A stretch of 19,362 nt of DNA from a virus (taxonomy: Duplodnaviria; Heunggongvirae; Uroviricota; Caudoviricetes): positions 1-19,362 of the IMG/VR virus record IMGVR_UViG_2695420739_000013, one strand, 5' to 3'. The notes beneath the pieces were generated by a model. The model was not told the origin of the DNA, did not search any database, and saw only the letters and a program-made list of their open reading frames with translations. Each line of letters begins with the position of its first letter. Positions within the stretch are counted from its first letter, which is position 1. A program made the translations under genes and the position numbers. Shown piece by piece: positions 2,155-16,239 of this stretch.

Positions 2155-3273
2155 TCAAATAACCAACTTAACCCATTCCTGACCTCGGGTATCGTTATAG
2201 CGATCGGTGGTTGCCTGGACTTTATGTCCTAGTAAGGTTTTTGTATCGATACCCTGTGCACGGTACAGCCGTTCAGATAGAGAGCGTTGTTCATGAAATG
2301 TGGGCGGTGTTTTTCCTGCTGGTGGAATTATTCCAGCCAGATCCCGCGCTTTGGCAAAGTAGTCGCTCAGGTTGTCTTTACTCATCGGCTTTGGTTGTTT
2401 CTGGTGCCGACTATGGATTAGATATGGACTTAATATTCTGTCTCGGCATCCATCAATAACGTCTTTTAACGTTATCCCAATGGCATCACAGCGTAGTGTA
2501 AGCGGTAACGCCAGACGCATTCCGGTTTTTCCCTGGGTGATATGCAAGTGTTCGTTCCACACATCTGAAAAACGCATGTGGCAAATGTCATCACGGCGCT
2601 GACCAGTGACAATCGCAAGAAGCATTGCGTTACGGATAAAGTGTTTTTCCGGCGTTGCGTTGTAAATTTTTTGCCAGTCTTCCAGGGCGAGCCTGGCTCT
2701 GGTTACTTTAGGGATCGGTTTACGGGTAGCCTCCGGAGGATTCCATCCAGGAGGAACTTCCCCTGCATGTTGTGCTTCTTTATAAATATCAACCCATAAT
2801 CCGCGATTTACTCTCGCTGTGCTGACCATGTCTTTATCCAGCCATTCATCCAGTATTAATGCAAAGTCTCTTACTTCCAGGTCTTTCAATGGGTGATTTC
2901 CCAGGCGGGAAACCAGGTATGCAGCCATTCGAGTTTTTTCTTTGTGAGTTGTAGCTGCAATATCTCCATTTTTCAGTCGCGTGTCCTGTATTTTCAGATA
3001 TCGATCAACCCACGCCTTTAATCTGATACCCCGACGTTTTGTTGCTGACGGACTTTCATCAATTTTGCGCATGAAATATTCAGCTTCTGCTGCAGCTATC
3101 CGCTGATTGGCTGTGGAAGCGATTTTTTCTGCCTTACCTTTGTCTGTTCCGAGTCCGTGAAATTTTCCAGTCACAGGATTTTTATACTGGTAGTAAACTC
3201 TGCCAGTTCTGCGATCAAACTTTTCGTAAAGACCGGCTACGTCAGTGCTGTTTTTTCGTGGCCTCGGTGACAT
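2155..3273 (-). CDS. int: Lambda-family tyrosine integrase
   Basis: 372 aa. C-terminal catalytic region (..LAIVTGQRRDDICHMRFSDV.., ..PPTFHEQRSLSERLY.., ..TTDRYNDTRGQEWVKLVI) lines up with lambda Int including the catalytic Tyr context (established family knowledge). Sits next to the host junction. Confidence 0.9.
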   Translation of the reverse strand: MSPRPRKNSTDVAGLYEKFDRRTGRVYYQYKNPVTGKFHGLGTDKGKAEKIASTANQRIAAAEAEYFMRKIDESPSATKRRGIRLKAWVDRYLKIQDTRLKNGDIAATTHKEKTRMAAYLVSRLGNHPLKDLEVRDFALILDEWLDKDMVSTARVNRGLWVDIYKEAQHAGEVPPGWNPPEATRKPIPKVTRARLALEDWQKIYNATPEKHFIRNAMLLAIVTGQRRDDICHMRFSDVWNEHLHITQGKTGMRLALPLTLRCDAIGITLKDVIDGCRDRILSPYLIHSRHQKQPKPMSKDNLSDYFAKARDLAGIIPPAGKTPPTFHEQRSLSERLYRAQGIDTKTLLGHKVQATTDRYNDTRGQEWVKLVI

Positions 3274-3520
3274 GAGTTAAAATCTCCTTCAGTGCATCAT
3301 CATCGCCAGTATGAATTTCCGGCGCAATTCCCGTTTCACCAGGCCCAACAAATACTGCTCGGCGATCTATCAGCCAACGCCCACGAATTTTTTGTGGTCT
3401 TGGAACGATGTATCCTAGTTTTCCGTATTTCACCAGGGTAGTGTTTGTTATTGGGAGACTGAACCGTTTTGGTTTCCACTCGTCGAGCGTTATCAGGTAC
3501 TGTTCGCTCATGGCTATCAC
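3242..3520 (-). CDS. xis: Excisionase (Xis-like); true start probably the internal Met at 3511
   Basis: Small basic ORF directly upstream of int and overlapping its start. YLITLDEW...RGRWLIDRRAV resembles lambda Xis (YLTLQEW...VRRWVRE). Confidence 0.75.
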   Translation of the reverse strand: MIAMSEQYLITLDEWKPKRFSLPITNTTLVKYGKLGYIVPRPQKIRGRWLIDRRAVFVGPGETGIAPEIHTGDDDALKEILTHVTEATKKQH

Positions 3521-7566: not shown

Positions 7567-7811
7567 CAGTCAGTGTTTCTGGCTAACCAGCAACGCGCGC
7601 CAGATCCGGTTTTAAACGTTTTGCTTTTGGTATATGTCATCGCGGTGAACGTACCGCCCTGGTTGGGGAACACGCCGTACACCAGAGATTCGTTGTTGCC
7701 AAGATCGATAGTATCCATGTTGACCTCATTTCCCCTTAACGCCGGGGTAGCGGAACTGTTTGCTGAGAACACCGTGCGGTGTCTTGATGGATCGTAATTT
7801 AGTTTTCTCAT
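7566..7811 (-). CDS. Hypothetical prophage early protein, first gene downstream of the repressor
   Basis: 81-aa ORF. Its start lies within an operator-like inverted repeat. No motif recognised. Confidence 0.5.
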   Translation of the reverse strand: MRKLNYDPSRHRTVFSANSSATPALRGNEVNMDTIDLGNNESLVYGVFPNQGGTFTAMTYTKSKTFKTGSGARCWLARNTD

Positions 7812-7846
7812 GAATATTGGTCAAGTGCTTTTAATGAGAAAACTCA
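7802..7846. promoter_or_regulatory. Operator-like inverted repeat (AGTTTTCTCA ... TGAGAAAACTCA) in the promoter region between the repressor gene and the early operon
   Basis: Seen in sequence: 10-bp arms 7802-7811 and 7835-7846 share the TGAGAAAACTCA motif also found at 8368-8381. Confidence 0.35.
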
Positions 7847-7909
7847 ATATTTAATGCAAAATAAAGCCAATACATTGAAATGTAAGGCTTTAAAATTTGT
7901 GAAGGGGGG

Positions 7910-8317
7910 TTATTGATGTTTGTTACGTTTGCGAGCTTCTAGTAGCTCGGTGAATAGGCGATTAAAATTCTCAACGCGGGCACGGAGTTCGCTGATTTGT
8001 GCTTGCTGCTCTGATTTTGGAAGTGCGCGATACAATCGCAACATCTCCAACTCATCTTCCGATAAGTCTAAGGCGCTGTTGAGTGCAACTGGTGGATCTG
8101 GTGTTTTATCCTCGTCACCAAACAGTATCCAAGTTGGTGAACATTGCAATACCTCAGCCAGGCGATGCAAATTTTGCCCGCGCGGGGCTGTATGGTCGCT
8201 TTCCCATAGTGAAATTGATGAGCCAGATACGCCAGCAGCTTTGCTTAAATCGTTTTGACTTAAACCAACCTGTTTGCGTCTTTCTCTAATTCGTTGACCT
8301 AAAGTTTTCTCGTTCAT
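7910..8317 (-). CDS. dicA: DicA-like HTH (XRE-family) prophage repressor
   Basis: 135 aa with an N-terminal HTH (GQRIRERRKQVGLSQNDLSKAAGVS). ..LQCSPTWILFGDEDK.. and the C-terminal ..RARVENFNRLFTELL.. closely match my recollection of K-12 DicA. Confidence 0.85.
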   Translation of the reverse strand: MNEKTLGQRIRERRKQVGLSQNDLSKAAGVSGSSISLWESDHTAPRGQNLHRLAEVLQCSPTWILFGDEDKTPDPPVALNSALDLSEDELEMLRLYRALPKSEQQAQISELRARVENFNRLFTELLEARKRNKHQ

Positions 8318-8367
8318 ATTTAGATATCTTAATAACCCTTGACTTGAGATTCCTTGAGTGATTACTA

Positions 8368-8381
8368 TTGAGAAAACTCAA
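8368..8381. promoter_or_regulatory. Operator-like palindrome TTGAGAAAACTCAA in the repressor/cro divergent intergenic region
   Basis: Seen in sequence: TTGAG-N4-CTCAA. Additional TTGAG half-sites at 8344 and 8355, and a TTGACT -35-like hexamer nearby. Confidence 0.35.
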
Positions 8382-8394
8382 CTTTGGAGGGGTG

Positions 8395-8622
8395 ATGTTT
8401 AAATCAGACGTAATTAATTTTTATGGGACGAAAGCCAAAGTAGCGAAAGCTGCTGGTGTTGATCCATCTGCTGTTTCTCAATGGGGGGAACTGGTTCCTG
8501 AAGGTCGCGCGATGCGCCTGCAAGAGGCATCCGGCGGGGAACTTCAGTACGACCCCAAAGTTTATGACGAATATCGTAAGGCAAAGCGGGCGGGGCGGTT
8601 GAACAATGAAAATCACCCCTGA
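8395..8622 (+). CDS. Cro-like regulator (DicC/YdaS family), divergent from the repressor
   Basis: ATG at 8395 with a GGAGGGG Shine-Dalgarno; the track ORF starts at TTG 8368. Small protein in the Cro position relative to the DicA-like gene. The family assignment is mostly positional. Confidence 0.7.
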   Translation: MFKSDVINFYGTKAKVAKAAGVDPSAVSQWGELVPEGRAMRLQEASGGELQYDPKVYDEYRKAKRAGRLNNENHP

Positions 8623-9157
8623 ACAGGTTTGTGAGGCTCTGGATGCCTGGGTATGCCGACCAGGAATGACACAGGAGCAGGCGACGATATTAATCACGGA
8701 AGCATTCTGGGCTCTGAAAGAACGCCCGAACATCGATGTTCAACGCGTCACGTTTAATGATGGCGAGGTTGATCAACGGGCGCTGGGCGTTAACCGGGTG
8801 AAGATATTCGAACGCTGGAAAGCTATCGACACCAGGGATAAGCGGAAAAAATTCACGGCGCTGATTCCGGCAATTATGGAGGCTATCCGAATTAGTGATT
8901 TCAGGCTGTATCGTGAGATCAGTGATGGAAAAAGCATTACGTACATGATCGCCGGATTAAACAAAGAATATGGCGATGTGGTGGAGTCCGGGCTGCTTTT
9001 TGCGGATCCAGCTGTTGTGGAACGTGAGACTGACGAGCTTATAGAAAAAGCTATTGCTTTCAAGCATGCGTATCGTCAGCAATATCAATATTACTTTGCA
9101 GATAAACAAATGTCTGCCAGGGGTTCGTATGAGTATCGATGCACTACGATGGGCTAA
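8606..9157 (+). CDS. YdaT-like prophage protein
   Basis: 183 aa immediately after the Cro-like gene. ..FTALIPAIMEAIRISDFR.. resembles the Rac YdaT segment I recall (..ALLPAILAIAPNDLR..). Low-certainty family call. Confidence 0.6.
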   Translation: MKITPEQVCEALDAWVCRPGMTQEQATILITEAFWALKERPNIDVQRVTFNDGEVDQRALGVNRVKIFERWKAIDTRDKRKKFTALIPAIMEAIRISDFRLYREISDGKSITYMIAGLNKEYGDVVESGLLFADPAVVERETDELIEKAIAFKHAYRQQYQYYFADKQMSARGSYEYRCTTMG

Positions 9158-10160
9158 AAAGGTGAAAACCGGCAGTTCATCCAGTAAGTCAGTATTGACC
9201 TGGCTTGCTGATATGTGCGGTGCCGATTTGTGTGCATACCCGTCTGTATCTGCCCTGGCAGAAGTAACGGAACTGAACAAAAAGACAGTGCAGGACAGCT
9301 TACGACACCTGATGGAGATTGGGTTAATTGTTGATACCGGTGAGAGAAAAGGCAGAACAAAGCAAATTGTGGTGTACCGACTTATCGGTGTAGAAGAAAG
9401 TGTTGCCGAGCCTGAATACACCCAAAAACGGGAGTCTTTAAAGGTGGGTAAAATTGGTGCTGTTAATAAAAACAGTACCGAAAATGGTTATGTTTCAGCA
9501 CAAAACAGACCCAAAAACGGAACTCTTAGCTGCATGGAAAATAACCAAAGACACCCAAATTTTCCATCAAAGACACCCAAAAACGGATCACGGAACCCAA
9601 AGGAACCCAAAGTTCTAAACCCCACACATAACGCACGCGAGAGTGCTCTGACCAGTGAGCAGGAAGTTTTGTCGTTACAGGCAGTATTCCTGGATGGCCT
9701 GAGAGAACCCATCGGAAAATTTCTGATGACCGATAGCTGGCATCCGTCGCGGGATTTTCGACGACGGGCTGCGTTGTGGGGGATGGCTTTGCCGGAGCCG
9801 GAATTTACACCTGCTGAACTTGCCGCATTCCGGGATTACTGGAGTGATGAGGGGAAAGTGTTTACGCAGATTCAGTGGGAGCAGAAATTCGCCCGTCACG
9901 TAAATCACGTCAGGGCGCAGGTTAAACCAGTCAGCAAGGGGGTGAACCATGCAGCAGCACCAGGGGGCACCGCATCACGGGCAGTTCAGGAAATTCGGGC
10001 AGCACGTGAGCAGTGGGAACGTGAAAACGGATTTATCCGCGACGGAAACGGCGTGGAAGCTGTGGGAACTCATGGGGGAGGTTTATTCGAACCGCTGGAC
10101 CCAGAAGAACGGGGCCGCACCTTCGAAGCTCTGGATTGCACAGATTGGTGCGATGACTGA
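9129..10160 (+). CDS. Replication initiation protein (lambda O-like N-terminal HTH, DnaT-like C-terminal region)
   Basis: Likely start MSIDALRWAKK at 9129; the track ORF starts at 9054 inside the upstream gene. N-terminal winged HTH (..SVSALAEVTELNKKTVQDSLRHLMEIGLI..). Iteron-like repeats lie inside the gene. Confidence 0.75.
   Translation: MSIDALRWAKKVKTGSSSSKSVLTWLADMCGADLCAYPSVSALAEVTELNKKTVQDSLRHLMEIGLIVDTGERKGRTKQIVVYRLIGVEESVAEPEYTQKRESLKVGKIGAVNKNSTENGYVSAQNRPKNGTLSCMENNQRHPNFPSKTPKNGSRNPKEPKVLNPTHNARESALTSEQEVLSLQAVFLDGLREPIGKFLMTDSWHPSRDFRRRAALWGMALPEPEFTPAELAAFRDYWSDEGKVFTQIQWEQKFARHVNHVRAQVKPVSKGVNHAAAPGGTASRAVQEIRAAREQWERENGFIRDGNGVEAVGTHGGGLFEPLDPEERGRTFEALDCTDWCDD
9421..9615 (+). 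repeat. Iteron-like direct repeats (ACCCAAAAACGG and variants, at least 5 copies) inside the replication-initiator gene; putative phage origin
   Basis: Seen in sequence: cccaaaaacgg (9421), acccaaaaacgg (9511), gacacccaaa (9551), gacacccaaaaacgg (9572), aacccaaagg and aacccaaag (9594-9613). Confidence 0.4.
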
Positions 10161-10614
10161 GCAGCAAATCCGACAGGTCTGCCGCCAGTGCATGGACCGC
10201 TGCCGGGAGGGTGAAACATGGCCTCCGGACCTGGCTGAGTTTGTGGCACTGATTTCGGAAAGCGGAGCCAATCCATTCGGTCTGACGGTGGATGCTGTGA
10301 TGGAGGAGTACCGCCGCTGGCGCAATGAGTCCTGGCGATACGACGGAAGTGATAAGTACCCGTGGTCTCAGCCTGTGCTGTATCACATTTGCCTCGAGAT
10401 GCGTTCAAAGGGGGTTGAGCGCCAGATGACCGAAGGGGAATTAAAACGGCTTGCAGAACGGCAGCTGACGAAATGGGCAAAGCATGTTAGTAACGGCCTG
10501 AGCGTTCCGCCAGTCCGGCGACAACTGGCGGCACCCAAACGCCCGTCGGGGCCAACGCCAATTGAGTTGCTGAAACAGGAATATGAACGCCGGAAAGCGG
10601 CTGGGCTTGTTTGA
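9949..10614 (+). CDS. Replication protein P-like (helicase-loader family); start uncertain (9949 or a downstream Met such as 10153)
   Basis: The C-terminal half (..PPDLAEFVALI.., ..YDGSDKYPWSQPVLYHIC.., ..EGELKRLAERQL..) parallels lambda P (..SPGQFVAWC.., ..YPDAESYPWKS.., ..DAELRRKAADEL..). The 5' ~210 bp overlap the O-like gene in another frame. Confidence 0.65.
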   Translation: MQQHQGAPHHGQFRKFGQHVSSGNVKTDLSATETAWKLWELMGEVYSNRWTQKNGAAPSKLWIAQIGAMTEQQIRQVCRQCMDRCREGETWPPDLAEFVALISESGANPFGLTVDAVMEEYRRWRNESWRYDGSDKYPWSQPVLYHICLEMRSKGVERQMTEGELKRLAERQLTKWAKHVSNGLSVPPVRRQLAAPKRPSGPTPIELLKQEYERRKAAGLV

Positions 10615-10720
10615 GTTGAGAAGTAATTTTTACCGGGAGGAAATTTATGGAGACTGTTTTTGACGCACTGAAAGCAATGGGAAAAGCCACATCCATAGAA
10701 CTTGCTGCGCGCGTGAAGAA

Positions 10721-10921
10721 GTGCTGAACGAACTATGGGAACTGAAAAAGGCTGGTTTTGTTGATAAAAGCGCGTACACCTGGCGTGTGGCTGATAACAA
10801 CGTTCAGCAGGAACAGCCAGCGCAGGCAGAACTGCCGGAAGAAACCACCACAATGAGTGAAGTTATGCAGCGCATACTGGCATTTTATCAGGGAAATGTT
10901 CGATATTTTAGACGTTACTAG
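10721..10921 (+). CDS. Hypothetical winged-helix-like small protein; possibly the 3' part of a frameshifted gene beginning at ATG 10647
   Basis: A 26-codon ORF (10647-10727, good GGGAGG Shine-Dalgarno) and this GTG-initiated ORF lie in different frames and join into one plausible ~92-aa protein across a -1 shift at 10719-10723. Confidence 0.35.
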
Positions 10922-11289
10922 ATTAAAGAGCATTAGTTCAGATGTGAATTGACATTGTGTGGCACAGGGTTGGGCTAGCGTGGGGGTTTGCTTTGTGTAA
11001 GAAACGGATGCTCTGCAAATTACTACTAATGCTTAATGTTAGTCTGATCTGCTCCCCGATGATTAATACACCGCTATGTTAGTAATGTCTGTAGATCGCT
11101 GTGTGTTGCATCCATCGGTTGACCCCACAGTCCAAACCAGACTGTCAGCTTTGATTCGATTCTATCTACTCAACCTGTCAGGTAATGTCTGAGCTAATAC
11201 ACAGAGTACGGCTATCGCGAACTTTAAGCTAGGTATCTGATACGCACCGTTCACTTGTTTGTACTTCTTGCACTGACTAGCTATCGTGC

Positions 11290-11322
11290 GCAGTTATTTA
11301 TAGGTAATCTCCAGTGTATAAT
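11290..11322 (+). promoter_or_regulatory. Candidate sigma70 promoter for the 281-aa island gene
   Basis: TATAAT at 11317-11322 with a weak -35 about 17 bp upstream, then AGGAGG and ATG at 11361. Pattern-based only. Confidence 0.3.
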
Positions 11323-11360
11323 TTTCCAACTTATGGGAGATTGTAAAACAGGAGGAATAT

Positions 11361-12206
11361 ATGAGGAAAAAATCGTTTGGACGTTGCCCGTTTGATTTCG
11401 ACGAAGATGTAAAAAAAATAGCCGCGATAAATAAATATATCCATGCGAAATTTGAGAGGCATAAAAATAAAATAGATAACCTAAAGGGGGTGGAACAAAA
11501 ATTGATGGTTTTACATTACTTTAATGTACTGAATGAACTTAGTAATCAGGCTATATTTTCTTTGAGTACCGGAGCCTTTTCAGCATCGGAAGTATTAACT
11601 AGAGTTATAATGGAACAGGCTGCCAATCAATTTTATATAGCAATTGATGATGGAAAAAATGCACAAGCATTACTCAAGGGTAGTAAGAAATTAGTTCATA
11701 GTAATGGGAAACGGTGGCTGGAGTGTTTAAAATCCAAAGAAATGACTAATCCAGCAGCAGATGAAAGGATTCGTATCGGAAAAGAGCTAACTGATATGTT
11801 TAATAGATTGTGGCCAAATACACCTGAATATCCTGGAACCAAAAAGCTTTTCGAAGTAATTGGCTGGGAAACACACTATCATGCCTATTACGTCCCTCTT
11901 TGTGATTCAATACATACATTCTCTGATGATATGGCAAATATAGTATCTCTATATAATGCAATCCAAAGCGATAAAACTACTGCTATCGAACTCACTCTTG
12001 CAGTTAAACAAGAAAATAAACGGCTGGCAATTTATAATGTCGTAATTGCTATTGGCCTGCGGTGTGAGGCCTTAGTAAATGTATTTAACTCTTTAGGTTA
12101 TCGAGATATTATAACTGAAATGGCGCCAACAATAGATGCAGTCAACCAGATTATAATTCGATATGATGATTTCGAACATTCCAGAATTTTTATTGTCAAT
12201 AATTAA
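11361..12206 (+). CDS. Hypothetical protein (281 aa), no recognisable catalytic motif; first gene of the AT-rich accessory island
   Basis: Long ORF with a perfect AGGAGG Shine-Dalgarno 7 nt upstream. Visibly AT-rich and Lys/Asn/Ile-rich, contrasting with the flanking prophage genes. Confidence 0.75.
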   Translation: MRKKSFGRCPFDFDEDVKKIAAINKYIHAKFERHKNKIDNLKGVEQKLMVLHYFNVLNELSNQAIFSLSTGAFSASEVLTRVIMEQAANQFYIAIDDGKNAQALLKGSKKLVHSNGKRWLECLKSKEMTNPAADERIRIGKELTDMFNRLWPNTPEYPGTKKLFEVIGWETHYHAYYVPLCDSIHTFSDDMANIVSLYNAIQSDKTTAIELTLAVKQENKRLAIYNVVIAIGLRCEALVNVFNSLGYRDIITEMAPTIDAVNQIIIRYDDFEHSRIFIVNN

Positions 12207-12259
12207 TTGGCAGAATTCGTACATGCACAACAACTAGTTATAGTTGACCTATTTCGCTC

Positions 12260-12828
12260 TTGAGAGACAACCATACTCAAATCTTCCACATTGCAGGAGA
12301 TTTGAGTATGAATACGTCACCGAGGAACAAAGACAGTATCATAGGCCCAAAAAGACCACTTCAGATATCTCATATCTGGGGGCTCCAAATCCGGCTTGAA
12401 CTGGAAGGTAAAACGCGTGATTTAGCTCGGTTTCAAGCAGAGCTACGGTGCTGCAACTGAAAAACTGGCAGTCCTATCCAATTTGAGATAACCAAAGGGA
12501 CAAGAGAAGCTGTTTCTGCATTGATAAAGCTTGGCAATTTACGCAGTAAAGACTACTTGTTCCGATCTCGGGTCGGTACTAACCAACACATATCAATCCT
12601 GCAATATAACCGAATCTTTCATAGGGGGGAGAAAAGCTTGGTCTCGAAGATTCGCTTTACAGCACACATTCCATGAGAAGAACAAAACCTTGCCTTGTCT
12701 GCAAGAAAACTAAGAATCTCCGGGTGATCCAACTTCCGTTGGGCCATAAGAAAACGGAAAGCACAGTTCGTTATCTGGGTATAGAAGTTGATGATGCATT
12801 AGAGATCTCTGAATCGATCGAAGTCTAA
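12260..12828 (+). pseudogene. Decayed tyrosine recombinase/integrase: C-terminal catalytic domain only, with an in-frame TGA and a frameshift
   Basis: The stitched translation ..KTGSPIQFEITKGTREAVSAL..DYLFRSRVGTNQHISILQYNRIFHRG/GEKLGLEDSLYSTHSMRRTKP..LGHKKTESTVRYLGIEVDDAL.. carries the H-x-x-R and LLGH...Y motifs of tyrosine recombinases. Stop at 12458-12460; frame change within a G6 run at 12624-12629; no N-terminal domain. Confidence 0.6.
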
Positions 12829-13240
12829 AGCTGTCAGGGCTGCAGCAGCAGCCCTGTGCCAAGAGCGTACCAATATATGTCTCAAAAAATTGGGCACAGG
12901 TCAATATCAATACCAACAACTCTGATTGTGCTCATGTGATTTACTCCTGTAGAAAACGCAGACAGTAAAAATATTTCACTGGCTGCTTCAGACAGGGCGT
13001 CCATCATATCATTACATAACAATAGCGGGGCACGATATCTAGACATGCAGCAACGATGGACATAGAATGAGTACAATCAAAAGCATGTTTAACTACTTTA
13101 ATTTAAAAATCTTAGAATCTTAGGTGTAGAGTTCAATACTTAGTTACATACCCTTTTGAAAGCATCACAAATCATAACTATGAGCCTGTTAAAGGCATAG
13201 GTATTCTTAATTAAGAGCATTTTAATGAGAGAAAAATAAA

Positions 13241-14614
13241 ATGAAAAGACTATATTATACCCATCATGATAGTCGAACCTTAAAACTTGCTATAGAAGGT
13301 GATGTTTCTGATAATGCGAATATTTTTACAGTAATTGTAGGTAAAAATGGCGTTGGAAAAAGCAGATTGTTATCTCAGATTGCTAAAGACTGTATTCAAG
13401 ATGTTCATTTCTTGAAAACTTTTAATCCATTATTTGACAGAGAAATAACACCAAAGTTAATTGCCGTATCTACCAGCCCATTCGATAAATTCCCTCCAGG
13501 GCGTAGGTCATTAAATCACCAAAGGAAAGAAAATAATTATCGCTATGTGGGTATGCGTGGAGAAGGCCCCTTCGGCGTATCAAATGCCGTATCCCTTTTA
13601 TCTTCAGCAGCGAGAGGTTGGCTAGAGAAACTTGCTTATTCAGAAAATCCTGCAAATTTACTCGATGTTTTTCATTCTATTGATTTTGAGCCCCATATAG
13701 AGTTTGTATTTAAACCAACTTACAACGGACCGGACACTCCTGACTATAACTTCATTGGTGTATATTCAGATGAGATATTAACGGAAGTTAAGGAGTTATA
13801 TTTAAAATACAATATAAAAATTGACAGGAAGAATATTGAGAGTCTCTTAAAGTTAAACTCCGAATCACGTCATGATATTTACGAAGCACTGGTTGAAATT
13901 AATCGATTTGAACCTGAACGTAGGGCTGTAACCTTGTCAGTCGATTTTACCAATGGTGAAACATTGGTTGGCTCGACTTATGCGAATAATTATTTTTCTA
14001 GATCAATTCTTAAACTTATGAACGCTGGCTTCATGAGATTGATGGATATGCGACTCATAAAAAAAAGCTATGGTCCCATGTCACTTAAACGTGCGAGCTC
14101 GGGAGAACAATGTTTATTAGTGATGTTGCTTGGAATTGCAGGGCATATAACTGATGGTTCTATAATATTAATTGATGAACCGGAAATAAGCTTGCATCCT
14201 CGATGGCAGGAAGAGTTTATCATTATGTTAACAAAAGCATTTTTAACTTACTCAGGTTGTCAATTCATAATTGCAACTCATTCACCACAAATAATATCCA
14301 ATTTGCCGAATAAAGGTTGTTATATAACATCTTTGTCGAAAAGTTATCTTTATAAAGCAAAATACTTTAGCAACCGGTCTGCAGACTATCAACTTGCGGA
14401 ACTATTTGATGCCCCTGGCATTATGAATGAATACATTGCCAGGTTAGCTTTCAATTTACTTTCAAAAGTTAAGACTGCTAAGTTAGTAACAGATGATAAT
14501 TGGCGTGAATTAAAACAACTCCAACTTCTCCTTGAAAACGTTAATAGTAATGACCCTATTAATGAACTCGTAAATTCCGTATCTCAGGTGTGTGAAATTT
14601 ATGCCAAAAATTAA
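13241..14614 (+). CDS. ABC-type (AAA_15/AAA_21-like) ATPase, Septu PtuA-like
   Basis: 457 aa. Walker A GKNGVGKS (residues 34-41), ABC-signature-like SSGEQ, Walker B IILIDEPE, D-loop SLHP, H-loop ATHSP. AT-rich. Its 3' end overlaps the following HNH gene. Confidence 0.85.
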   Translation: MKRLYYTHHDSRTLKLAIEGDVSDNANIFTVIVGKNGVGKSRLLSQIAKDCIQDVHFLKTFNPLFDREITPKLIAVSTSPFDKFPPGRRSLNHQRKENNYRYVGMRGEGPFGVSNAVSLLSSAARGWLEKLAYSENPANLLDVFHSIDFEPHIEFVFKPTYNGPDTPDYNFIGVYSDEILTEVKELYLKYNIKIDRKNIESLLKLNSESRHDIYEALVEINRFEPERRAVTLSVDFTNGETLVGSTYANNYFSRSILKLMNAGFMRLMDMRLIKKSYGPMSLKRASSGEQCLLVMLLGIAGHITDGSIILIDEPEISLHPRWQEEFIIMLTKAFLTYSGCQFIIATHSPQIISNLPNKGCYITSLSKSYLYKAKYFSNRSADYQLAELFDAPGIMNEYIARLAFNLLSKVKTAKLVTDDNWRELKQLQLLLENVNSNDPINELVNSVSQVCEIYAKN

Positions 14615-15236
14615 AAATCCAATTAGATTCAGCGCAGAGTCATTAGATATTATTGAGAAAAAATTGTCTTCTCCAGATTTTAAGCATACCAACTGGGGAG
14701 ATGATGATTTGCAAGTTCTCCGTGCAGAAATTAGAAATCATTACAGAGAAGAACAAAAGCTAGAATGTGTATATTGTCATGAGCCTATTGGGGTAAGAGC
14801 TGCACAAGCTGCTCCTATAGAGCATATTGTGCCAAAATCTCAATATCTATGTTTTATTTTTGAACCTAAGAATCTATGTGTAGTATGTCCTGACTGCAAT
14901 GAATTCAAAGGTAAAAATGAAGTGTTATTTGAACCCGTAATAAATGGGGGGCGGCGCAAAAACTATCCAACTGCATCTGCATCATTTCGCATCGTTCATC
15001 CACATATAGATGATTATGAGATGCATATTATAAAAGCAAATCGTGTTTATGTGGACAAAACACCTAAAGGGCACTATACCATTGGAATATGTAAACTAAA
15101 TAGATTTTTTCATTATTTTGGGATGTGTGATGAATTTGTTAATGATGCAAAAATTGCTGAGACAAATGAAAATTTTTTCAAAAAAGGTAGTATTACTACT
15201 AATGAATTATTGGATGATGACATTCATTTGATTTAA
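14601..15236 (+). CDS. HNH endonuclease, Septu PtuB-like
   Basis: ATG at 14601 (track ORF from GTG 14592) overlaps the ATPase gene by 14 bp. HNH-type motifs CVYCH...EHIVPKS...CVVCPDCN (two CxxC pairs flanking the catalytic His). Confidence 0.85.
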   Translation: MPKIKNPIRFSAESLDIIEKKLSSPDFKHTNWGDDDLQVLRAEIRNHYREEQKLECVYCHEPIGVRAAQAAPIEHIVPKSQYLCFIFEPKNLCVVCPDCNEFKGKNEVLFEPVINGGRRKNYPTASASFRIVHPHIDDYEMHIIKANRVYVDKTPKGHYTIGICKLNRFFHYFGMCDEFVNDAKIAETNENFFKKGSITTNELLDDDIHLI

Positions 15237-15549
15237 CTATGAATTATTATATTGTAAAGTAATCAGGTAAGATATGTTAGACAGTGAGACTATTGCCTTA
15301 CAGAATTCATTATTCTTATGGATCGCCTTTCTGACTGATTTCATATTGGCGGGGTAACGGGAGTTAAGTAGAATGGCTGCGGGTGCTTGAGGCTATCTGT
15401 CTCAGGCATGAACACCAAAGGCAGATAGAGAAAAGCCCCAGTTAACATTACGCGTCCTGCAAGACGCTTAACATTAATCTGAGGCCAATTTCATGCTAGA
15501 CACATGTAGGTTAGCCTCTTACGTGCCGGAAGGCAAGGAGAAGCAGGCT

Positions 15550-15705
15550 ATGAAGCAGCAAAAGGCGATGTTAATCGCCCTGATCGTCATCTGTTTAACC
15601 GTCATAGTGACGACACTGGTAACGAGGAAAGACCTCTGCGAGGTACGAATCCGAACCGGCCAGACGGAGGTCGCTGTCTTCACAGCTTACGAACCTGAGG
15701 AGTAA
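15550..15705 (+). CDS. hokD: Hok/Gef-family type I toxin (HokD/RelF-like), 51 aa
   Basis: MKQQKAMLIALIVICLTVIVTTLVTRKDLCEVRIRTGQTEVAVFTAYEPEE matches K-12 HokD as I recall it, differing at about one residue. The in-frame upstream extension from 15493 is what the ORF track reports as 70 aa. Confidence 0.85.
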   Translation: MKQQKAMLIALIVICLTVIVTTLVTRKDLCEVRIRTGQTEVAVFTAYEPEE

Positions 15706-15774
15706 GAGACCCGGCGAGGGAGAAATCCCTCGCCACCTCTGATGTGGCAGGCATCCTCAACGCACCCGCACTTA

Positions 15775-15805
15775 ACCCGCTTCGGCGGGTTTTTGTTTTT
15801 ATTTT
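15775..15805 (+). terminator. Rho-independent terminator downstream of hok
   Basis: Seen in sequence: CCCGC-ttcg-GCGGG followed by TTTTTGTTTTTATTTT. Confidence 0.5.
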
Positions 15806-15921
15806 CAACGCGTTTGAAGTTCTGGACGGCGCCGGAATAGAATCAAAAATACTTAAGTAGCGCGCAGGGATAAGAGGGATGGTCCCTTAAAGGGGAGAGC
15901 TAATTATCCGGAAGGATTCTG

Positions 15922-16173
15922 ATGATGAACATCGAAGAACTGCGTAAAATTTTTTGTGAAGATGGCCTCTATGCTGTGTGCGTTGAAAATGGAAATCTTG
16001 TTAGTCATTACCGCATTATGTGTTTGCGAAAGAATGGGGCTGCGTTAATTAATTTTGTGGATGGTCGAGTGACAGACGGATTTATCTTGCGCGAAGGTGA
16101 GTTTGTCACTTCATTACAGGCACTGAAAGAGATCGGAATAAAAGCAGGCTTTTCAGCTTTTGCAGAAGAATAA
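15922..16173 (+). CDS. Small prophage protein, Rem-like by position (Qin order hokD-rem-ydfU)
   Basis: 83-aa ORF with a GGAAGGA Shine-Dalgarno. The assignment rests on size and synteny, not on confident sequence recognition. Confidence 0.55.
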   Translation: MMNIEELRKIFCEDGLYAVCVENGNLVSHYRIMCLRKNGAALINFVDGRVTDGFILREGEFVTSLQALKEIGIKAGFSAFAEE

Positions 16174-16239
16174 ACTCATCTACAATCTTGCGCGGGGCTG
16201 AACTCCCGCTGAGTAACACCGTGCCACCGGAGAAAACCG

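Follow-up and report, generated by a model that had tools for sequence, protein, structure and literature searches.

A probable lambda-type replication origin inside the initiator gene of a lambdoid prophage

Introduction

Lambdoid origins of replication consist of iterons and an AT-rich region in the middle of gene O, and these iterons are intrinsically bent (PMC7466680). Here we describe an array of short direct repeats inside the replication initiator gene of a lambdoid prophage on the viral record IMGVR_UViG_2695420739_000013. The whole stretch analysed, 19,362 bp, is referred to as the window; the array occupies 192 bp of its + strand (9420-9611). We consider it probable that this array supplies the iterons of an intragenic prophage origin of the lambda type, and that it is read by the N-terminal winged helix-turn-helix (wHTH) domain of the protein encoded by the same gene. 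The literature searched contains no description of this array as an origin or of the initiator family, only background on lambda and Stx phages (PMC7466680) and bare mentions of oriJ. The design is classical, but neither the initiator family nor its widely conserved iteron word seems to have been described in that literature.

Results and Discussion

The replication module and its initiator

The array lies in the early-right operon of a lambdoid prophage, with the initiator gene in the position of lambda O. The genes and domains of this region are as follows.

2155-3273: integrase
7910-8317, - strand: cI-like repressor gene
8339-8368, + strand: pR-like promoter before the cro-like gene, from a consensus scan alone (9/12 matches)
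8368-8622, + strand: P22 Cro-like gene, behind the pR-like promoter
8606-9157: YdaT-like open reading frame (ORF) upstream of the initiator, overlapping its start by 29 nucleotides (nt)
9129-10160, + strand: replication initiator gene, an ORF of 343 amino acids (aa) with wHTH N-domain, predicted disordered linker and DnaT-like C-domain
9129-9398, + strand: N-terminal winged-helix domain, aa 1-90, presumed reader of the iterons (AlphaFold 2 (AF2) model, Foldseek, HTH_36 in orthologues)
9708-9923, + strand: DnaT-like single-stranded DNA (ssDNA)-binding domain (PF17948; PDB DnaT entries 6aep/4ou6)
10153-10614, + strand: lambda P-like helicase-loader gene (PF06992, E 7e-17; phrog_109 'P-like helicase loader', E 2e-62)

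The full-length initiator matches phrog_1032 ('replication initiation protein') with an E value of 2e-88, and more weakly the O-like families of PHROG (E 4e-7 to 6e-12). An AF2 model based on 47 homologues contains a wHTH at aa 1-90 with a predicted local distance difference test score of 93-98. Helices at aa 3-11, 17-29, 40-47 and 51-64 are followed by a two-strand beta-hairpin wing. A DnaT fold occupies aa ~195-265, and the intervening residues 91-190 are modelled with low confidence and presumably form a disordered linker. Foldseek relates the N-domain to generic wHTH binders and regulators, and weakly to RepA_N initiators. The C-domain superimposes on DnaT crystal structures with a root-mean-square deviation of 1.1 Å at 55-58% identity, and matches PDB entries 6aep/4ou6 at the sequence level with E 1e-18 to 1e-20. 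The Pfam DnaT profile (PF17948) agrees with this fold (E 8e-17, 61 bits vs a cut-off of 25). The array corresponds to aa 98-162, directly after the N-domain and inside the low-confidence region, and would therefore encode the disordered linker.

The start of the P-like gene was placed from homology to Rac-SA53 ydaV. Its ATG (10153) overlaps the stop codon of the initiator (ATGACTGA), which suggests translational coupling. A helicase-loader gene thus follows the initiator directly, and P-like or DnaB-like genes stand at this place in relatives. A scan for terminators found none.

The iteron array

The elements of the array and its borders are listed here.

9418-9435, + strand: iteron 1, ACACCCAAAAACGGGAGT, peptide TQKR; at nt 291 of the gene in Edwardsiella, Serratia, Kluyvera and Scandinavium
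9433-9508: lowest-GC part of the array (30-35% GC) with phased A-tracts; the sole, weak candidate for an unwinding region
9475-9492, + strand: degenerate iteron, AGTACCGAAAATGGTTAT, peptide TENG; core CCGAAAATGG, replaced by CCGAAAACGG in many E. coli variants and in orthologues
9507-9524, + strand: iteron 2, AGACCCAAAAACGGAACT, peptide PKNG; the copy under least constraint
9551-9566, + strand: variant or half copy, ACACCCAAATTTTCCA, at the place of the inverted iteron of relatives (CCGTTTTTCC, peptide PFFP)
9573-9590, + strand: iteron 3, ACACCCAAAAACGGATCA, peptide PKNG, with a GATC inside at 9586-9589
9592-9612, + strand: tandem of GGAACCCAAA (2.1 units), repeating the right half-site GGAAC(C) in one-helical-turn phasing (Tandem Repeats Finder, TRF)
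9617-9632, + strand: mosaic junction, AAACCCCACACATAAC, with the N-domain and iteron module upstream and a shared DnaT-like module downstream

An earlier, sequence-only reading of this DNA had reported at least five ACCCAAAAACGG-type copies in a stretch of about 200 bp inside the coding sequence of the replication initiator, and had quoted the linker peptides RPKNGT and KTPKNGSRNPKEPK. Its coordinates and motif were right, the array does lie within 9129-10160, and both peptides are correct for that ORF. Exact-word scans, unbiased 10-mer scans and TRF defined the repeat units and their spacing. The copies resolve to three exact, one degenerate and three half copies, a clustering of direct repeats in the initiator gene that exceeds chance.

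The exact 12-mer ACCCAAAAACGG starts at 9420, 9509 and 9575, always on the + strand, and has no further exact copy in the 19,362 bp. The full-length degenerate copy, CCGAAAATGG, spans 9478-9487. Half copies, ACCCAAA, begin on the + strand at 9553, 9595 and 9605; six of the seven occurrences of this word in the window fall within 9420-9611. The last two half copies lie in the stretch 9592-9612 that TRF reports as a 10-bp tandem of 2.1 units. A motif-free scan of the whole window returned the 10-mers of the array, and those alone, as words with at least three copies in 250 nt. Spacing between successive copies is uneven (56, 33, 44, 22, 20 and 10 nt).

The + strand of the array is rich in A and C, with an AT skew of up to +0.67 and a GC skew down to -0.52. 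Periodicity of AAA at 10-11.2 bp is strongest in 200-bp windows that start at 9391-9421; it peaks at 11.0 bp, and these windows hold ranks 1, 2 and 4 of 1917.

Conservation of the iteron word

The core CC(A/G)AAAACGG occurs three to six times per orthologous gene, always at about nt 265-480 of the gene. It was found in 12 of 13 diverse related loci that were inspected singly; the exception, L014, has iterons of its own. The core-bearing loci come from Scandinavium, Enterobacter, Kluyvera, Plesiomonas, Edwardsiella, Serratia, Reinekea and Yersinia, from a contig encoding a protein that NCBI names after Ralstonia, and from two metagenomic loci. All 13 representative loci keep the terminal iteron (iteron 3) together with its right flank. 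In most of these loci, but not in L008 or L012, the last iteron is followed by (G)GAACC repeats. At the place of the half copy 9551-9566, relatives have GTACCGTTTTTCCC, which encodes VPFFP. At four loci the called genes were inspected: three have a repressor or cro-like gene upstream, and in three the initiator is immediately followed by a lambda P-like or DnaB-like gene.

We also searched in the reverse direction, from DNA to protein. A scan of 2.9 million IMG/VR contigs, made with no protein information, looked for pairs of cores separated by 12-42 nt and returned at least 120 loci. Among the matches listed, 97 of 120 loci encode the N-domain upstream and on the same strand, as detected by the hidden Markov model (HMM) of the family. 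Relative to the first base of the matched core pair, the end of the N-domain ranges from 217 nt upstream to 8 nt downstream. Clustering at 70% identity divides these 97 N-domains into 45 groups, and their identity to that of the window is 25-82%. The sequence-only reading had named absence of the repeats from orthologues as an outcome that would refute it. This is not what we found, since the core is present in the 12 loci above and in these 97 further viral loci.

The 257 unique sites give the consensus AAnAGT(C/A)CC(A/G)AAAACGG(G/T)AC, in which inverted 5-bp arms, GTCCC and GGGAC, surround AAAAAC. In the window's own copies, only 3-4 of the 5 arm positions match.

One of the 23 listed loci without an N-domain match, L170, is a frameshifted member of the family. 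Three others (L126, L137 and L207) encode initiator-like wHTH proteins that fall outside the N-domain HMM and carry the same core after the DNA-binding domain. The core forms 12-bp tandem repeats encoding (SQKR)n in L126 and L137, and reads as TQKRV / PKNG / TQKRV in L207, which is lambda O-like in appearance. These sequences hint that the iteron word is not confined to a single family. Five viral contigs (L146, L187, L189, L206 and L212) share a near-identical short stretch (...YIFQKRKIKRQYFPKTENIE) with two cores; it is seemingly non-coding and is not preceded by an initiator N-domain.

A broader reading is that one iteron word of the GTCCC-AAAAAC-GGGAC type serves a whole wHTH initiator superfamily, to which some O-like and other initiators would belong. 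We hold this reading only tentatively and put its chance at somewhat less than even. Its scope may comprise prophages of gammaproteobacterial hosts, the contig with the Ralstonia-named protein and unassigned metagenomic contigs. If it is true, the DNA site, acting in three frames and in antisense, dictates the linker peptides PKNG, QKR and PFFP. Co-resident prophages, with up to four copies per E. coli genome, would then share origin specificity and could activate one another's replication, compete for it or exclude it, in contrast to the distinct ori specificities of the lambda, phi80 and P22 group.

Reading frames and synonymous recoding

The linkers of homologues from Klebsiella, Edwardsiella, Yersinia and other hosts, and of the Ralstonia-named protein, are rich in PKNGT, TENGT, QKR(N/D/E) and PFFPS. 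A single DNA word, CC(A/G)AAAACGG, underlies all of these peptides, with direct copies in different frames and inverted copies that give PFFP. The word occupies three frames in the window itself: frame 0 at 9420 (TQKR), frame 1 at 9553 and 9595, and frame 2 at 9509, 9575 and 9605 (PKNG). By frame, the 415 cores of the 97 listed loci divide into 303, 71 and 41, and 57 of these loci use at least two frames.

We then recoded the linkers of 11 loci with synonymous codons drawn from local usage, 5000 times per linker. The recoded sequences contain 0.12-0.44 cores on average vs 2-6 observed. The observed count was reached by none of the 5000 recodings in ten loci, and the remaining locus, L006, gave P = 0.006. 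In the adjoining N-domain, synonymous codons of the window and of other lineages are identical at 36-49%. We regard this level as close to saturation, yet the cores remain intact. In orthologous genes the repeats are thus kept as DNA rather than as peptide. The deficit of cores after recoding argues that selection acts on the DNA of the array and not on the peptide.

Co-variation and exchange of N-domain and array

The exceptional locus L014, from an uncultured gammaproteobacterium, encodes a distant homologue with 37% identity over N-domain residues 1-67, which scores above the HTH_36 threshold. At 3272-3383 (nt 272-383 of the gene) it contains five head-to-tail 22-23-bp repeats, GGTAGTCTCACCATGAGACCAGA, each with the palindrome GTCTCACCATGAGAC. 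These repeats encode GSLTMRP-type peptide repeats and look like a textbook intragenic iteron array of another specificity. In this one homologue, a diverged reader appears to be paired with a different iteron at the same position.

Rac-SA53 ydaU and phage vB_Apl-pPE4 match only the C-terminal half of the initiator gene, with 90-94% identity (megablast 9636/9686-10160). By eye, both alignments begin at AAACCCCACACATAAC, 9617-9632, a junction word also present in the Enterobacter and Kluyvera loci. The N-halves are unrelated to that of the window (DUF1376 in Rac-SA53 ydaU, no family in pPE4) and have their own short repeats before the junction. Conversely, N-domain and array of the window type are joined to varied partners, namely DnaT-like, Phg_2220_C and other C-domains, with P-like or DnaB-like genes downstream. 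Since they are swapped as a block against several C-domains, N-domain and array form a single specificity module that can be exchanged, like that of lambdoid O genes. Iterons and N-domain thus co-vary in L014, are exchanged together at the junction and occur together in 97 of the 120 listed loci.

The pPE4 match (L002, PP818812.1, 2501-2976) is unexpectedly close, with 93.7% nucleotide identity over the DnaT-like half and the P-like gene, for a phage deposited as one of Actinobacillus pleuropneumoniae. Either a recent transfer or a wrong host assignment could explain this.

Variation in E. coli and a circular record

Among 5,426 complete E. coli genomes, 908 (~17%) contain the N-half, with up to four copies each. 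Strains with the module include O157:H7 and O111. It also occurs in PPompW prophages, some of which were deposited in joint records with Stx2a-converting phages. A protein scan of IMG/VR with a four-sequence alignment of the N-domain returned nearly exclusively near-identical E. coli copies, 80 of which served as the polymorphism sample.

The core of iteron 1 is unchanged in all but three of the 80 copies (first base of the 12-mer in L041/L047, an extra A in L033), and iteron 3 is unchanged in every E. coli copy covering its position. The half copy at 9551-9566 is likewise unchanged in most, but reads ACCCAAT in L025 and L094 and GATCCAAA in L033. Half copies vary in only a few copies, and the variant-bearing copies overall are L033, L041/L047, L025, L094 and L052.

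Several copies are broken within the array. A third GGAACCCAAA unit (+10 bp) causes a frameshift and a 170-aa product in L020 and L022, the extra A in iteron 1 frameshifts L033, and L031 is rearranged after 9536. This makes the array a mutational weak point as well, a hotspot for inactivation of the initiator. Its breakage probably explains the many 'partial' or 160-180-aa proteins in databases (P0001, P0006, P0022).

A Dam site, AAAGATCT, stands just after the array in all other E. coli copies that cover it and in most relatives. The window has AAAGTTCT at this place (9612-9615, with T at 9613), by which this GATC is lost; the second GATC, at 9586-9589 in the right flank of iteron 3, is kept. 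Control of the origin by Dam or SeqA is possible.

NZ_CP148379.1 (L099; pZ1323HEC0067-2 of E. coli Z1323HEC0067) is a circular plasmid record of 8,461 bp, colinear with window positions 7756-16206 at 99.2% identity. It closes at a 17-bp near-repeat, GCTGAG(A/T)AACACCGTGC, that occurs in the window at 7762-7778 and 16208-16224. The record contains cI-like, cro-like, ydaT-like, initiator, P-like, DUF5677, PtuA/PtuB, hokD and rem genes, and its only replication genes are the window-type initiator and the P-like gene. It may represent a lambda-dv-like replicon, which would be circumstantial evidence for origin activity.

A lambda-type origin and the alternatives

Position in the initiator gene, joint exchange with the N-domain and constraint on the DNA all point to the array as the iteron part of an intragenic origin. 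The initiator family (phrog_1032) is new for an origin of this type. By analogy with lambda, the N-terminal winged-helix domain would bind the repeats. With an A-tract phase of 11 bp the sites would lie roughly on one helix face, so that several bound initiators would bend the DNA, or wrap it, and form a complex resembling the O-some. Opening would then take place within or beside the array, and the DnaT-like ssDNA-binding C-domain, together with the downstream lambda P-like loader, would recruit host DnaB. Transcription from the pR-like promoter would run through the array. Binding, bending, unwinding, helicase recruitment and origin firing are steps that we infer.

Several observations weigh against this interpretation. 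No distinct AT-rich unwinding tract was found by the iterons in the window or in the 12 relatives examined. The lowest GC content (30-35%) lies inside the array, the DNA to its right has 50-60% GC, and the window is without the separate 40-bp AT-rich tract that lambda has on this side. The spacing is irregular in comparison with the 20-24 nt of lambda. Iteron 2 is polymorphic in E. coli, at 9509, 9514, 9518 and 9519, and PPompW phages have a G>A change in it. The circular record could be a product of excision or assembly and not a replicon that is maintained. We claim no homology to lambda O: the initiator has no match to Pfam Phage_rep_O, and hhalign against lambda O gave E 0.006 and a probability of 6.5%. 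Finally, the N-domain of the window scores 20.8 bits against Pfam HTH_36 (PF13730), below the gathering threshold of 25. Orthologues that are 37-75% identical score 30-35 bits, which suggests that HTH_36 membership holds by homology.

The main rival accepts the repeats as true initiator sites, but assigns them to autoregulation, copy-number control (handcuffing or titration) or a transcriptional roadblock and places the origin elsewhere. Selection at the DNA level and linkage to the N-domain fit this explanation equally well, and it gains from the lack of a clear AT-rich unwinding element beside the array. However, no copy of the word occurs near the pR-like promoter or elsewhere in the window, and the array is located ~1.1 kb downstream of this promoter. 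There is also no second repeat cluster in the window as an alternative origin, and the precedent of lambda puts the origin at exactly such a place. We therefore regard a purely regulatory role as unlikely.

It is less probable still that the repeats are sites for a host protein (IHF, Fis, DnaA or SeqA) instead of the phage initiator. Such proteins could explain phased A-tract-rich DNA and the GATC sites of the terminal block, but the window contains no DnaA box, and to our knowledge the iteron core does not resemble the consensus of IHF or Fis. Furthermore, the word is tied to one protein domain from Enterobacterales to the contig with the Ralstonia-named protein, and a different repeat is found once the N-domain diverges, as in L014.

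We give slightly less credence still to selection on a low-complexity PKNG-type linker with the DNA repeat as its by-product. PKNG, TENG and QKR do recur in homologue linkers, and the majority frame of the listed cores (303 of 415) could reflect a preferred peptide. Yet the same DNA word is used in three frames and inverted, and recoding of the same peptides leaves at least 10-fold fewer cores. The codons (CCC, AAA, AAC; CAA, CGG) are fixed while synonymous sites elsewhere are saturated, and the linker is predicted to be disordered. On the recoding test, we reject this explanation.

The least probable proposals are that the array arose by recent, neutral slippage or duplication of A-rich DNA, or that it is a set of programmed-frameshift slippery sites. 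They could draw on a 10-bp unit present two or three times, on A-runs that gain bases in some prophage copies and on a 54-aa alternative-frame ORF across the array (9454-9618). However, the array is kept across lineages that share just 25-82% N-domain identity, and Rfam detects no RNA family in 8300-10700. We reject a frameshift site because CCC AAA AAC, as it is read here, does not form a canonical X XXY YYZ heptamer, and because length variants just truncate the protein, which looks like decay rather than regulation. Like the host-factor and peptide explanations, slippage and frameshifting are contradicted by the data.

Comparison with known origins

In the lambda record J02459, four iterons are annotated at nt 348-433 of O (ATCCCTCAAAACGAGGGA, ATCCCCTAAAACGAGGGA, ATCCCTCAAATTGGGGGA and ATCCCTCAAAACAGGGGG), followed by an A-rich tract. 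Both systems have direct initiator sites inside the initiator's own gene, in the linker right after the N-terminal DNA-binding domain. At the level of the family consensus, the order of C-rich arm, A-tract with C(G) and G-rich arm is shared as well (TCCCTC-AAAAC-GAGGGA in lambda vs GTCCC-AAAAAC-GGGAC). A-tracts appear to be phased in both systems, and the repeats are read in more than one frame. In both, a P-like loader gene comes next, the module lies within the pR-cro operon, and N-domain and iterons swap as one specificity module. Thus, the proposal that the array mirrors the origin in lambda gene O holds for position, P-like partner and conservation, while the gene can be called O-like by position and remote similarity only.

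The differences are also clear. The initiator of the window is not a Pfam Phage_rep_O protein; its N-domain is of HTH_36 type and its C-domain is DnaT-like. The cores of the window measure 10-12 bp vs 18 bp in lambda, and half-site repeats (GGAAC) follow the last iteron of the window and are kept in most relatives. The ori specificities of lambda, phi80, 82 and P22 differ, whereas one iteron word is kept across very divergent window-type initiators.

The Rac YdaU/YdaV module (oriJ) resembles the window in its DnaT-like half, at 90% nucleotide identity (9636-10160), in the P-like gene that follows and in its dicA-dicC-ydaT-type gene order. In contrast, its N-half is DUF1376 rather than wHTH/HTH_36, and it is without a CC(A/G)AAAACGG array.

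Origins of iteron plasmids have direct repeats, a winged-helix initiator, helical phasing and assembly of an origin complex. Direct, helically phased repeats for a winged-helix initiator that would form an origin complex relate the window to RepA of pPS10, RepE of F, pi of R6K and TrfA of RK2, a likeness drawn partly from PMC4081077. Their iterons, however, lie outside the rep gene, beside a DNA unwinding element and DnaA boxes, whereas those of the window are intragenic. The plasmid Rep proteins have two winged-helix (WH) domains, in contrast to one wHTH and a DnaT domain in the window protein. With a single wHTH, weak Foldseek matches and no DnaA box, it does not belong to the plasmid iteron Reps (Rep_3 / WH1-WH2).

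DnaT of E. coli functions in PriA-dependent restart, without sequence-specific origin binding. The C-domain of the window protein has the ssDNA-binding fold of DnaT but, unlike DnaT, is fused to an origin-type wHTH. The protein scores 92 bits against the NCBIfam DnaT equivalog model vs a cut-off of 201.

This assignment locates the probable origin of a lambdoid prophage module carried by about one in six complete E. coli genomes. It extends the lambda design of an origin in the initiator gene to initiators that combine an HTH_36-type wHTH with a DnaT-like domain, for which the literature searched holds no published origin. It also provides a clean case of a DNA site that constrains protein sequence across three reading frames. 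Uses include annotation of prophage origins, construction of mini-replicons and prediction of cross-talk or incompatibility between co-resident prophages.

Genes downstream of the replication module

A DUF5677 protein is encoded at 11361-12206. Just downstream of the replication module, at 13241-15236, lies a Septu-type defence pair, composed of the AAA ATPase PtuA (E 1e-165) and the HNH nuclease PtuB (E 1e-83).

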